In this document: in pieces, positions 1 to 7,907 of the stretch
How the letters are laid out: every line of letters begins with the position of its first letter
Numbering within the stretch: the first letter of the stretch is position 1
IMG/VR virus record: IMGVR_UViG_2703718786_000001
Span: 1-7,907 of that record
Strand: one strand, 5' to 3'
Source of the DNA: a virus
Taxonomy: Monodnaviria > Loebvirae > Hofneiviricota > Faserviricetes > Tubulavirales
Length of the DNA: 7,907 nucleotides
Translations under genes and position numbers: made by a program
Notes under the pieces: generated by a model
Seen by the model: the letters and a program-made list of their open reading frames with translations, nothing else
The model's database searches: none
Told to the model about the DNA's origin: nothing

Positions 1-16
1 GAAAATCACGGTCAGC
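1..16. repeat. Terminal redundancy: 16 nt at 1-16 are identical to 7892-7907, so the unit genome is circular and 7,891 bp
   Basis: Exact match of gaaaatcacggtcagc at both window ends. The pIII frame on the minus strand stays open and in phase across the junction. Confidence 0.8.
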
Positions 17-142
17 AACTTCTGAAACAGATGAAACAATATAATCATCAACAGTTATATTCTGTCGTTCGATAATTTTTTCTATCTTCTTTATTACATC
101 AACGGGTATTTGTAGCCGGATTTCTGTCTTTTGCATAAAAAC

Positions 143-220
143 TCACATATTACTCTTAAAACCCATAACACAACAAAGCCCACAAAGAGAGCCGTACATC
201 ATGAAAATAAATTCCCACAT
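143..220 (-). CDS. Hypothetical 25-aa hydrophobic, Cys-rich peptide (MWEFIFMMYGSLCGLCCVMGFKSNM)
   Basis: ATG at 220-218 preceded by GGAG 6 nt upstream. It sits just after the coat-gene terminator and was too short for the ORF track. No homology evidence; could be chance. Confidence 0.2.
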   Translation of the reverse strand: MWEFIFMMYGSLCGLCCVMGFKSNM

Positions 221-234
221 AAAGAACTCCGATC

Positions 235-256
235 AAAAAAGGGCGGATATCCGCCC
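235..256 (-). terminator. Rho-independent terminator downstream of the major coat gene
   Basis: Palindrome gggcggatatccgccc (241-256) followed on the minus strand by TTTTTT (plus-strand A-run 235-240), just 3' of the coat stop codon at 274-276. This is the position of the strong terminator after gVIII in Ff phages. Confidence 0.7.
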
Positions 257-273
257 TTCCCCATAAAAACAAC

Positions 274-525
274 TCAGATACTTCTGACGGCACCCCATAC
301 CTTACGAACGCCAGCAAAAGTCAGATAAACAGCCACTCCTGAAACACCGATAGAAAGAATAACGGCAGAAACAGAAGACATATCAATACTGCTAGTCAAT
401 GATGAAAAATCGACTGTGCTTTCAGCAAAAGACGGAGATGCAGCAAGAGCAGAAGCAGCGGAGAGAGATAAAACTGCACCTTTCTTATTAACACCCTTAA
501 AAAAATTAGTCATTTTTGCAAACAT
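274..525 (-). CDS. Major coat protein precursor (pVIII-like), 83 aa
   Basis: ATG at 525-523 with AAGGAG 9 nt upstream. N-terminal signal peptide (MFAKMTNFFKGVNKKGAVLSLSAASALAASPSFA) followed by a predicted mature peptide of about 49 aa with an acidic N-terminus, a hydrophobic core and a basic C-terminus (..AGVRKVWGAVRSI), the typical inovirus coat layout. The tracked ORF start at 585 is probably too long. Confidence 0.75.
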   Translation of the reverse strand: MFAKMTNFFKGVNKKGAVLSLSAASALAASPSFAESTVDFSSLTSSIDMSSVSAVILSIGVSGVAVYLTFAGVRKVWGAVRSI

Positions 526-527
526 AA

Positions 528-701
528 TTAAAGTCTCCTTATTAGACTCCAGATTGTGGAAATAATCATGCCAAGAAAAAAACAAAATACTGGCAGTGAA
601 AACCCCGTTAAAAACGCCGAAGAATCAATCCCCGACACATCAGGTATCCCCACGCAAACAGCATTAATTTGCGTGGAAACTGAATCCGAATTAGCCGACA
701 T
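528..701 (-). CDS. Small hypothetical protein, 57 aa, with a hydrophobic C-terminal segment; occupies the pVII/pIX (minor coat) position
   Basis: Translation MSANSDSVSTQINAVCVGIPDVSGIDSSAFLTGFSLPVFCFFLGMIISTIWSLIRRL. Its stop TAA (530-528) lies 2 nt before the coat ATG and its last codons contain the coat Shine-Dalgarno, a coupled arrangement typical of gIX/gVIII. The start is uncertain; internal GTG starts are possible. Confidence 0.35.
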   Translation of the reverse strand: MSANSDSVSTQINAVCVGIPDVSGIDSSAFLTGFSLPVFCFFLGMIISTIWSLIRRL

Positions 702-704
702 ATG

Positions 705-935
705 TTACATTAAACATTTACAGTCCTCTATGAACTTTAAACAAAGTGCATTAAGCCTTATCAGCTTTGTCATTTCATAAGAATCCAGCGGAATGCGAGG
801 ATTATTAAGCAACAGTGAAATATGACTCATACACACAATGAATATGTCAAATGCAACCGAATAATTAGAGGAGGAAAACTCAGCCACACCTTTACTGTAA
901 TAAGATTGTATAAGCCCGACGAAATCCCTACTCAT
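705..935 (-). CDS. Small hypothetical protein, 76 aa; positional equivalent of a minor virion or morphogenesis protein
   Basis: ATG at 935-933 overlaps the TGA stop of the upstream gV-like gene (ATGA overlap). It is the internal start of tracked ORF 705..986. No recognisable motif. Confidence 0.4.
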   Translation of the reverse strand: MSRDFVGLIQSYYSKGVAEFSSSNYSVAFDIFIVCMSHISLLLNNPRIPLDSYEMTKLIRLNALCLKFIEDCKCLM

Positions 936-1303
936 AATTTGTCTTTTCCATCTTTTGAATCCAGTGGGATAAAAACTAAATCCCACGGACGTGCTGTATT
1001 AATGGCTCCGCGTTCATTGACTTTGAAGTATGAAGGGTGAATAAGATAACGACCAACCGAATATGGTGGCTGCCCATCATTAACTGGAACAACGATTTCA
1101 ATACGCTCGCGACCACGCTCTAATAACATCTTCTGTATACGTGATTCACGCTCAACCATCTTTTTTGAACCATCATCATTAAATACTGGTTCACCATTCT
1201 TATCTTTTTCCTGATAGGAAAAAGTATTTACTTCAATAACATCATCCCCTTCTTCTACAACAACAATCAGAAGGTCACGGGTATCAAGCGTTATCTTAGC
1301 CAT
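932..1303 (-). CDS. ssDNA-binding protein (Ff gene V-like / CTXphi RstB-like), 123 aa
   Basis: ATG at 1303 with AAGGAG 8 nt upstream. The segment DGQPPYSVGRYLIHPSYFKVNERGAI resembles the DNA-binding region of Ff gVp (EGQPAYAPGLYTVHLSSFKVGQFGSL, recalled from memory). It lies immediately downstream of the replication gene as in Ff and CTX phages. Confidence 0.65.
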   Translation of the reverse strand: MAKITLDTRDLLIVVVEEGDDVIEVNTFSYQEKDKNGEPVFNDDGSKKMVERESRIQKMLLERGRERIEIVVPVNDGQPPYSVGRYLIHPSYFKVNERGAINTARPWDLVFIPLDSKDGKDKL

Positions 1304-1315
1304 AATTAAATCTCC

Positions 1316-2443
1316 TTAAGCAACAAGATATAGTTCTGCTTTACGCTCACGATAAAAATCTGGTTTCACAACAACATCATTAAACTCAATTTCTTTAATT
1401 TCTCTGATGATGACGCCAGGAAACAGAGAAACATTGTATTCCCGCGCGATGTCTATACCAATTTTACGAAGTCTTGCCCGATGCTCTTTAATCTGCCTTT
1501 TAGATAAATCAAACCGTTCACCATTAGCCCATGAATACGCATAAAAAGCAGTTGTATGCGCAGCCCTGACAGTGTCAACTATCTTTTTCTCTAAAAGTTC
1601 TGAAGCAACACTTTTCACATCCATAGTAGAAGGTCTCGTTTTTTTATGTATATCAACAAACTCATTTAATAAAGGATATAACTCACCTTCAAAATCAGCA
1701 TAACCCCAGTCAGTAAGATTCTGTTTCTTCAAAAAGCGTCTTTTTAATTTCAGTTCAAACCTGATTACACCATATATAAGCAGGAACTCATACAATTTCT
1801 GGAGGTAGCGATATTCTTCACTATCAGTACCAAATTTTTTCTCTGTCTTTTTCATTGAATGGATAAGGAGATCATGACTTTTATTATAAATACTTGGATA
1901 CATGTAATTAACTTTCCCCCCATCCGTCATAAAATCAGCAGTCTGACCATTAGGTCGTAGATTTCCATTCATACGACGAAAAGTCAGCATAGAAAGCGCA
2001 CGTATTACGCTGTTTTCATTGCCCGGACCAACAGCAATATTTCTGTTCACGTGTGTCTCAATGACCTGAGCGCCATCCCATACATGACCGCAGTAAGAAC
2101 CATCTGCACATTGACGAAGTTTTCGTCGACGACCTTTGGTAAACTCCGGCAGCCCAAGCGAGCGTAAGATCTGGTTAAAAACACCAAAACATTCATCCAC
2201 TGAGGCACATCCAAAAACGTTATCCAGCTTTCCCCACCGAGACGGATTACCGGACATTGTCAGTTCAGAACCACGAATTTTGATAGAAACAACGTCACTG
2301 AAAGATCCTTCATGAACAAAAACAGGTTGAGAAAGAGAAGAAACTTCCCCCGTTTCAAGGTGTATGCGCTGATAACCCACATTACTGATGTGGGGCAGTT
2401 CAAAACCAAAGTCCTGCCGAGCTTTCAACCAGTCAAAATTCAT
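1316..2443 (-). CDS. Rolling-circle replication initiation protein (pII/RstA-like)
   Basis: Large ORF with similarity to Ff pII by memory (GKLDNVFG versus GHNVFG; NEN and NGQT motifs). The start is set at ATG 2443 (MNFDW...) because a consensus sigma70 promoter lies just upstream. The longer tracked start at 2551 (MLRCNF..., 411 aa) is also possible and gives a better N-terminal length match to Ff pII. Confidence 0.75.
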   Translation of the reverse strand: MNFDWLKARQDFGFELPHISNVGYQRIHLETGEVSSLSQPVFVHEGSFSDVVSIKIRGSELTMSGNPSRWGKLDNVFGCASVDECFGVFNQILRSLGLPEFTKGRRRKLRQCADGSYCGHVWDGAQVIETHVNRNIAVGPGNENSVIRALSMLTFRRMNGNLRPNGQTADFMTDGGKVNYMYPSIYNKSHDLLIHSMKKTEKKFGTDSEEYRYLQKLYEFLLIYGVIRFELKLKRRFLKKQNLTDWGYADFEGELYPLLNEFVDIHKKTRPSTMDVKSVASELLEKKIVDTVRAAHTTAFYAYSWANGERFDLSKRQIKEHRARLRKIGIDIAREYNVSLFPGVIIREIKEIEFNDVVVKPDFYRERKAELYLVA

Positions 2444-2467
2444 AAAACGAACATGAAAAAGATATGC

Positions 2468-2524
2468 GTAACCATAGATGTTACTATAAGAACATTGCCA
2501 TGTTACTGTCAATACAAATGTTAC
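2468..2524. promoter_or_regulatory. Operator-like repeats in the divergent control region
   Basis: ATGTTAC occurs three times on the plus strand (2478-2484, 2500-2506, 2518-2524), with small inverted repeats gtaac-N7-gttac (2468-2484) and aacat-tgcc-atgtt (2491-2504). The repeats overlap the spacer and -10 region of the putative rep promoter. Confidence 0.35.
2483..2512 (-). promoter_or_regulatory. Candidate sigma70 promoter for the replication gene
   Basis: On the minus strand: TTGACA (plus 2512-2507), an 18-nt spacer, then TATAGT (plus 2488-2483). Predicted transcription start is near 2475, about 30 nt upstream of ATG 2443. Confidence 0.5.
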
Positions 2525-2581
2525 GTAGCAAGTGAAGTTACACCGCAACATAATATGGAAAAAGACGAAGGGAACAAAAAT

Positions 2582-2857
2582 ATGAAATGGTTAGAAGATT
2601 ACATAGATGAGCTAAAAGAGAGGTTAAAACTGCAAAGCGATTATGCAACAGCACAATATCTCGGAATACCAAGGCAAAGTATGACAAAAATAAGAAATAA
2701 TACGGCTTTAATTGGACATGATAAGTGCCTGAAAATAGCCAATGCTTTAAAAATAGACCCTGTTGAAATCATAGCCACTGTCAATGCCCAAAAGGAAAAG
2801 GACAAGGATCTAAAGGCAATGTGGATTCGACTAGCAAAAGAGAAAGGGAATCAGTAA
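2582..2857 (+). CDS. Helix-turn-helix transcriptional regulator (putative phage repressor, Xre/CI-like), 91 aa
   Basis: The only convincing plus-strand gene. ATG at 2582 with purine-rich GAAGGGA upstream. HTH-like segment QSDYATAQYLGIPRQSMTKIRNN. Divergent from the rep gene as rstR is from rstA in CTXphi. The tracked ORF start at 2312 overlaps rep and is rejected. Confidence 0.65.
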   Translation: MKWLEDYIDELKERLKLQSDYATAQYLGIPRQSMTKIRNNTALIGHDKCLKIANALKIDPVEIIATVNAQKEKDKDLKAMWIRLAKEKGNQ

Positions 2858-2858
2858 A

Positions 2859-2876
2859 AGTGCGGGAAACCGCACT
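2859..2876. other. Short hairpin directly after the regulator stop codon
   Basis: agtgcgg-GAAA-ccgcact, a 7-bp stem with a GNRA-type loop. It is followed by a T-run only on the minus strand, so the direction of any terminator function is unclear. Confidence 0.3.
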
Positions 2877-2878
2877 AA

Positions 2879-3207
<329 letters not shown>

Positions 3208-3250
3208 TTATAGCAGTTATCGATAAGACAAAAAGATGCCCCGTTAAAAG

Positions 3251-3346
3251 CAGTGCGTACAAGAGCGTTATGTGTAAATCGGGCGCGGCGATCGCCATTT
3301 TCGCCGCACCCGATTCAACATAACGGCATATACCTTATACGCACTG
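3251..3346. other. Structured element B: second copy of the dif-like forked hairpin
   Basis: Outer stem cagtgcgta (3251-3259) pairs with tacgcactg (3338-3346); the outer-stem changes relative to element A are compensatory (c to t on the left, g to a on the right). Inner 14-bp stem 3278-3291/3301-3314 has one mismatch. Minus-strand arm AGTGCGTATAA-GGTATA-tgccg-TTATGTTGAAT (plus 3313-3345) matches dif at 9/11, 5/6 and 10/11 positions, with a 5-nt insertion. Confidence 0.55.
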
Positions 3347-3614
3347 CAATGAGATGCGGTAAAAACAGACTGAAAGCGACACCGACCCTCACCAGAACGC
3401 TGTAAATCATCAATTCCATCAACATGCCACATCAATGCATGGACGACTCACGCCTTGCGTCGTTCGTCTCGCTGACTGCCCGTTTAAAGGCGGTCTGGCA
3501 GGCGGCGCGTTGCGCTGTCTCCTGCTGCTCTGTCATCTCTCACTGGCTTCGGCGGGCTGACAGCTGCGTCACATGAAACATCATCATGCCGCCTTCCATG
3601 CCGCTGGCGCGGCA

Positions 3615-5932
<2,318 letters not shown>

Positions 5933-6245: not shown

Positions 6246-7865
<1,620 letters not shown>

Positions 7866-7907
7866 AACCACCCCCAAAATAACAATGTTGCGAAAATCAC
7901 GGTCAGC

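Follow-up and report, generated by a model that had tools for sequence, protein, structure and literature searches.

The DNA analyzed here, a stretch of 7,907 nucleotides (nt) referred to as the window, is an inovirus genome in which all structural genes lie on the minus strand, in the order coat, terminator, 25-amino-acid (aa) open reading frame (ORF), small gene, pIII, DUF2523 pVI-like protein, Zot/pI, and secretin. The window, which represents one unit of the phage, is the reverse complement of the whole 7907-nt draft contig LOFT01000033.1 (GCA_001607045.1), from which it differs only at positions 3179-3180, where the window has TT and the contig has NN. Our analysis centered on the small gene and its junction with gene III, and the following features are referred to throughout.

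2551-1316, minus strand: replication protein, assigned from the Pfam families of homologous loci.
1303-932, minus strand: single-stranded DNA-binding protein, assigned from the Pfam families of homologous loci.
274-525, minus strand: major coat protein gene, 83 aa from ATG 525; relatives have an 83-aa gene called in this position.
235-256, minus strand: intrinsic terminator after the coat gene, GGGCGG-ATAT-CCGCCC and then TTTTTT (perfect inverted repeat I3).
143-220, minus strand: 25-aa hydrophobic ORF (MWEFIFMMYGSLCGLCCVMGFKSNM) with GGAG upstream, in the same frame as the small gene.
1-136, minus strand: small gene with a predicted ribbon-helix-helix (RHH) product, codons 1-45 plus 1 nt; homologues P0001-P0020, and an identical gene in L011 and L013.
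7892-7907, no strand: terminal duplicate of window 1-16, an untrimmed contig-end overlap (exact over 16 nt; single copy in relatives).
7848-7891, minus strand: rest of the extension of the open frame, in which codons 46-49 (RNIV) are authentic small gene and codons 50-60 are out-of-frame sequence in the pIII frame.
7880-7881, minus strand: deletion junction, t7881 being followed directly by a7880 (placement uncertain by 1 nt), with a +1 frameshift.
7868-7875, minus strand: SD-like GGGGGTGG, 2 nt upstream of GTG 7865, retained despite the deletion.
6246-7865, minus strand: gene III, pIII of 539 aa from GTG 7865, the homologous GTG being picked by the gene caller.

An SD-like GTGAG precedes the small gene at 146-142, overlapping the TGA (145-143) of the upstream 25-aa ORF. 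The original prediction had placed the small gene in the frame of this ORF (220-143), separated from it by only one TGA. The shared frame was confirmed, and the gap was found to be the TGA at 145-143 plus two codons. The same arrangement, in frame with TGA plus two codons in between, was observed wherever the ORF accompanies the RHH gene, and its L001-type counterpart (MFDFIFMMFGSLCGLCCVIGFKSNL) is conserved in the distant type without a RefSeq annotation. The 25-aa ORF could encode a pVII/pIX-like cap protein. When the region was scanned for promoter and terminator consensus sequences, the coat-gene terminator was not listed and no credible promoter was found for the small gene.

From the ATG at 136-134 on the minus strand, the frame of the small gene is free of stops to position 1 and then continues into pIII once the overlap of the contig ends is collapsed. 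This overlap is an exact 16-nt direct repeat (GAAAATCACGGTCAGC), window 1-16 being the same as 7892-7907. With a literal end-to-end join, a stop follows the 46th codon (...ADRDFR-TGA); with the overlap counted once, a fused ORF of 593 aa is obtained. In 16 related loci the 16-mer is present only once, with the sequence running straight through the point of the contig end, and the protein reads ...EVADRDFRNIV... across the junction in all window-type relatives. As none of the related loci has a second copy here, collapsing the overlap is justified, and, on the sequence of these relatives, counting it once is the correct way of closing the circle. The earlier translation of the frame (MQKTEIRLQ...) was reproduced exactly in the collapsed form and in that form only, indicating that the overlap had been silently collapsed before. 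The extension ahead of pIII had been put at about 65 codons; the frame is indeed open, for 60 codons ahead of ATG 7847 or 54 ahead of GTG 7865. Base composition gives a probability of about 0.03 for 60 open codons. Since 49 of these codons belong to a conserved gene (see below), just 11 further codons needed to be open (P of about 0.5), and the same 11 codons are also open in the pIII frame of intact relatives. We noticed that 16 nt is unusual as the length of a de Bruijn k-mer overlap and that it equals the size of a deletion lying 11 nt away.

Comparison with relatives, proposed with the original prediction as a way to find a stop codon or a separate small gene, revealed that codons 1-49 of the frame are a real gene, as all 16 related Escherichia coli filamentous-prophage loci (16/16) carry a separate, 56- to 63-aa version of it. 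Homologous protein clusters span 56 to 64 aa and fall into two types. In the protein search, 18 window-type clusters (58 to 64 aa) were 90 to 100% identical over residues 1-49, and all of them continue with ...NIVKPFSFDF... and then a short variable end; among those with a source name, nearly all are from E. coli. The distant type, represented by WP_000107046.1 (56 aa, 43 to 45% identity), occurs on about 700 contigs; complete E. coli genomes, which hold only this L001-type allele of the module, list it directly upstream of pIII as a hypothetical protein. The two subfamilies share 18 invariant residues within positions 1-49 as well as the KPFSF motif, and dN/dS between them is 0.26 to 0.34. 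Judged from this ratio, the 49 codons are under purifying selection. An exhaustive HMMER search of 1.84 billion representatives yielded nothing beyond these clusters and P0023 (see below), so the family appears to be confined to this phage group as far as these sequences tell, and a Pfam search returned nothing relevant for the small protein.

In the intact loci, the end of the small gene is tightly packed against gene III. In the window type, its TAA lies 11 nt inside gene III, giving a 14-nt overlap with the pIII GTG, and the L013 protein is 63 aa long with an intact tail; in the distant type, 4 nt separate TGATGA from the pIII ATG that follows. These stop positions relative to the pIII start showed that the small gene and pIII are separate genes, and we infer from the overlap that the two would be translationally coupled. 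The last residues of the P0001-P0018 tails vary by frameshifts in a TTTTGGGGGTGG run just upstream of the pIII start, yielding the variants GGWS, GGGREIK, GR, GRLL, and LGSGREIK, none of which is in the pIII frame.

What distinguishes the window is a stretch of 16 nt (AAGCCTTTCTCTTTTG, minus strand) that every relative carries and that is missing here, the deleted form reading CAACATTGTT joined directly to ATTTTGGGGG. The gap was visible in the alignment with L003 and L004 and by BLAST against 13/13 window-type loci. The L011 and L013 prophages are the same as the window except for the pIII Gly-Thr repeat, the att site, and this gap, and they are 100% identical to it over the deletion stretch apart from the 16 nt. 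The loss takes out the invariant KPFSF tail together with the stop codon and shifts the small gene into the pIII frame, so that the frame difference between the two genes, +1 in 16/16 related loci, is 0 in the window alone. The contig ends 27 nt from the deletion site, and the untrimmed 16-nt overlap is 11 nt away from it. Repeat-mediated deletion was considered as its origin and rejected because the microhomology at the junction amounts to only 1 nt.

The deleted form was then sought in sequence collections. The exact pattern of the deleted junction gave 0 matches in IMG/VR, and neither there nor in JGI metagenomes or GTDB species genomes did the deleted form turn up. A gapped junction pattern matched only undeleted relatives (L005 and L006) and one unrelated sequence by chance (L007). 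At the protein level, the 22 matches of two word-index searches were all 56 to 72 aa long, and a word-index search with the 60-aa query including the frameshifted tail gave no match longer than 64 aa. Neither the 5.8 billion proteins covered by the word index nor the 1.84 billion representatives searched exhaustively yielded a fused homologue, and none of the 16 loci examined carries a fusion. The single long match of the exhaustive search, P0023 (5144 aa, matched in 36 stretches), is probably an artefact of repetitive sequence. When the pIII of the window was looked up from its GTG, ATG, and TTG starts, nothing was on record; the end-truncated product of 553 aa did lead to the source contig, LOFT01000033.1. 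These data speak to the three explanations offered with the original prediction. A chance open frame is contradicted by the conservation of 49 of the 60 codons and their dN/dS, and an in-frame fusion of a regulatory module to pIII found no counterpart in the loci, the protein searches, or the collections. Loss of a stop codon as a point change did not hold up either, since a 16-nt deletion with a +1 frameshift is the cause and the KPFSF tail is lost along with the stop.

For pIII itself, two starts had been suggested, GTG 7865 and ATG 7847. The former is preceded by GGGGGTGG-TT and opens, as read from the sequence, a Sec-type signal peptide (7865-7797) with a basic n-region directly at the N terminus, likely cleaved after VRA; the same GGGGGTGG stands before the called pIII start of L003, where the gene caller uses the same GTG. 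ATG 7847 has neither an SD nor a basic n-region. Thus, GTG 7865 is most likely the start of pIII on these features, and ATG 7847 is the less likely one. In the fused frame, the hydrophobic core of the signal peptide would be found at residues 61-71. Further into gene III, a 12-nt tandem repeat of 14 copies at 6610-6778 encodes a (Gly-Thr)n linker; in L011 and L013, which are otherwise identical prophages, the repeat is 96 nt longer.

The first residues of the frame had been guessed to form an RHH domain, and this was supported at the level of predicted fold by AlphaFold2 and Foldseek. The AlphaFold2 model of residues 1-49, a single chain predicted from an alignment of only 12 sequences in two subfamilies, has an extended N terminus followed by helices at 12-25 and 29-48, with a mean pLDDT of 84, and thus a strand-helix-helix topology within about 45 residues. 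In the full-length model, tail residues 50-63 are disordered and the N-terminal strand is unpaired in the monomer. When the model was compared with the PDB by Foldseek, the great majority of the top 50 matches were RHH proteins, albeit at E-values of 0.08 to 0.8, including CopA_SO (TM 0.86 to 0.88), Arc, CopG, KacA/AtaR, TacA, ParD, and AmrZ. Sequence profiles pointed the same way at low significance: a PHROG Arc-like repressor was matched at an E-value of 0.017, hmmsearch of PDB profiles gave Arc at 1.2, and hhalign placed residues 5-39 on Arc residues 9-43 (26% identity, E-value of 0.013, probability of 3.4%), in the same register as hmmsearch. No RHH family was recovered from Pfam even at E-values up to 10, and there was no significant match to a curated RHH family. 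The N-terminal strand alternates polar or basic residues (K/T3, E5, R/K7, and Q/K9) with hydrophobic ones (I/F6, L/V8, and I/L10), E5 and P11 are invariant in the two-subfamily alignment, and helix A begins at P11, with N26/T28 capping helix B. Taken together, residues ~3-48 are likely to form an Arc/CopG-type RHH domain as modeled. A search for operator-like repeats in window positions 1-1000 returned only the terminator palindrome and weak pairs.

The predicted protein resembles Arc of phage P22 and the CopG/MetJ family in size (a 49-aa core in a 56- to 64-aa protein), in the predicted strand-helix-helix order, and in the strand alternation, the proline at the junction of strand and helix A, and the N/T cap before helix B; with Arc, the alignment to residues 9-43 contains no gap. 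In contrast to these proteins, it has no significant Pfam RHH match, lacks a glycine in the turn between the helices, and carries its own invariant KPFSF in a disordered C-terminal tail, and its gene is located in the inovirus morphogenesis module in presumed direct coupling with gene III rather than in an immunity region. An N-terminal RHH domain followed by a disordered C-terminal tail is likewise a property of RHH antitoxins (CopA_SO, TacA, AtaR/KacA, and ParD). Unlike these, the small gene has no adjoining toxin gene, being flanked by the 25-aa hydrophobic ORF and pIII, and its tail of about 7 to 15 residues is much shorter than toxin-neutralising tails. A type II antitoxin was rejected because no toxin gene adjoins the small gene: in the window as in the 16 loci, it is accompanied by the coat gene, the 25-aa ORF, and pIII, with no match to a toxin family in Pfam. 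With respect to gene arrangement, the region shows the compact packing of Ff-type phages, in which an upstream stop overlaps or abuts the next start (here GTG...TAA over 14 nt, or TGATGAaATG), and the pIII SD lies inside the upstream coding sequence. We know of no gene between gene VIII and gene III in Ff, IKe, or I2-2. For UPphi, two unknown genes are mentioned where I2-2, IKe, and M13 have an intergenic region (PMC7307601).

Since the deletion is seen in this contig only, it represents a private lesion or an assembly error rather than an evolved fusion. We therefore consider it very probable that a separate, conserved Arc/CopG-like gene has been run into the pIII frame by a 16-nt deletion private to this contig. 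Whether the deletion is real or an error of assembly appears about equally likely.

That the 16-nt loss arose purely in assembly or circularisation, the phage of the isolate having an intact 63-aa gene and the open frame being absent from the real molecule, has in our view somewhat less than an even chance. The position of the deletion, so close to the contig end and to an untrimmed overlap of identical size, is suggestive of such an error, as is the NN at the att site in the public record, which marks a scaffolded or edited draft. Moreover, no other sequence among the 16 loci and about 100 contigs of this allele group has the deletion, the motif that it removes is invariant in the family, and all else is identical to L011. 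However, it is rare for short-read de Bruijn assemblers to create such a clean 16-nt deletion when no k-mers support it, and a real polymorphism among the phage copies (a bubble) would explain a contig break beside the site equally well. The identical contig is also reported in 2 samples, which would favor a real deletion if these are independent isolates.

An evolved, functional fusion, in which the RHH module has become a new N-terminal domain of pIII, is very improbable. The open frame and the intact RHH core (residues 1-49) of the fused product would be in line with it, and so would the finding that the small gene is inherited with the N-terminal domain of pIII as a mosaic block (see below). 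Yet neither of the two large protein searches returned a fused homologue, and the genes are separate in every related locus. The frameshifted join abolishes the conserved tail, so that the domain is followed by out-of-frame residues (ILGVVV) and an internal signal peptide, and the genome is otherwise identical to unfused prophages, which leaves no time for adaptation of a fusion. A literal junction, with the 16-mer truly present twice in a terminal repeat or a linear molecule and the small ORF ending after 46 codons, agrees with the end-to-end reading of the contig and is just as hard to credit, given that all related loci, including prophages identical to the window, have the 16-mer once and that the phage family has circular genomes integrating at dif. 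Finally, an upstream frame open by chance and devoid of coding meaning can practically be dismissed, for even though a probability of about 0.03 for 60 open codons is not negligible, 49 of the 60 are conserved in two subfamilies with 18 invariant residues and a low dN/dS, and their structure is predicted with confidence.

How the small gene is inherited was evident from comparison with the other E. coli prophage type. Identity to that type is 85 to 92% up to the small gene, where it stops exactly at the ATG (window 134-136), and high identity resumes only inside pIII, at about 6790-7100. The block in between, comprising the small gene and the N-terminal part of pIII, shows about 69% identity, and the two appear to behave as one exchangeable mosaic block. 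At a larger scale, the coat-RHH-pIII-pVI-Zot-secretin module is joined in L008, L010, and L013 to three replication modules (a Phage_GPA protein of 667 aa beside an IS110 transposase, a Rep_trans protein of 398 aa, and a G2P_X_C protein of 411 aa). Because the small gene follows the coat-pIII module across these three, its target is likelier to be linked to morphogenesis or pIII than to the switch between replication and lysogeny.

Under the preferred reading of a private 16-nt deletion, the intact phage would have a 63-aa gene between the coat terminator, with its 25-aa ORF, and gene III. Its product would be a small, dimeric Arc/CopG-like DNA-binding regulator, as the predicted fold suggests, with KPFSF in the disordered tail as a putative interaction motif, and its translation would be coupled to initiation at pIII. 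Loss of the 16 nt near the 3′ end would then shift the reading by +1 into the frame of pIII, where by chance no stop intervenes. If real, the deletion may be sub-clonal, for instance in one copy of a tandem array or of a replicative-form (RF) population, and this would also account for the break of the assembly graph at the site. With a real deletion, pIII would still be made from its own SD and GTG 7865, while ribosomes that arrive after translating the small gene would produce pIII with 54 additional cytoplasmic residues before its signal peptide, and free RHH protein would presumably be lost.

A more far-reaching combination of ideas is conceivable and, taken jointly, improbable. A real deletion would place an RHH domain before the signal peptide of pre-pIII and leave it tethered to the membrane after cleavage. 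Independently of this, the intact 63-aa RHH/KPFSF protein would be an unrecognised inovirus regulator, inherited in a block with the receptor-binding part of pIII and coupled to it, for example setting pIII dosage or superinfection exclusion according to receptor type.

For annotation, these results mean that the locus should be described as a disrupted or questionable small gene followed by a normal gene III from GTG 7865, and not as a pIII of 593 aa. What is new is an assignment at the fold level, predicted Arc/CopG-like with a KPFSF tail, for a family of hypothetical proteins found on many hundreds of E. coli contigs. Its site in the morphogenesis module and its travel with the pIII N-terminal domain make the protein a candidate regulator of gene III or of assembly. 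More generally, ORFs that cross contig junctions need to be checked against terminal overlaps and relatives before they are interpreted.

Outside the small-gene region, the window was compared with other replicons. A megablast search with the whole window gave no match among INPHARED phages, and PLSDB plasmids gave short non-coding matches only. The GC-rich non-coding segments 2930-3082 and 3400-3617 are 85 to 97% identical to unannotated segments of hundreds of Escherichia/Shigella plasmids, small plasmids of 2.6 kb included, and the region may be a shared Xer/cer-like or origin-type element. On the plus strand, window 2312-2857 holds a 181-aa ORF antisense over the 5′ end of the replication gene, of which gene callers in relatives take only the C-terminal 91 to 100 aa. 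In L002, which has another replication module, the corresponding place is annotated as a helix-turn-helix protein. The 181-aa ORF may encode the phage repressor, and the true start of pII (called at 411 or 375 aa) is correspondingly uncertain.

The L011 and L013 prophages lie between hipBA and a fimbrial operon, the neighborhood of dif. A 15-nt core, CAGTGCGCATAATGT (window 3207-3193), is duplicated at the prophage ends in L011 and resembles the XerC arm of E. coli dif. The dif-like core and the prophage site together identify the phage as a dif-integrating E. coli inovirus, and its integration is probably mediated by XerCD. Two dif-like sites were recognized on the minus strand, at 3170-3210 (AGTGCGCATAATGTGACACGCGTTATTTATGTTGAA) and at about 3313-3350 (AGTGCGTATAAGGTATATGCCGTTATGTTGAAT). 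The NN of the public record (L018, positions 4728-4729) falls inside the central region of the dif-like attP, where L011 and L013 lack 4 nt (TTAT). Directly upstream at the same chromosomal site, L011 carries a second, unrelated inovirus (positions 1-3662) with a Phage_Coat_A pIII, a 403-aa Zot, and a 406-aa secretin, which possibly belongs to the UPphi/I2-2-like group described previously (PMC7307601).
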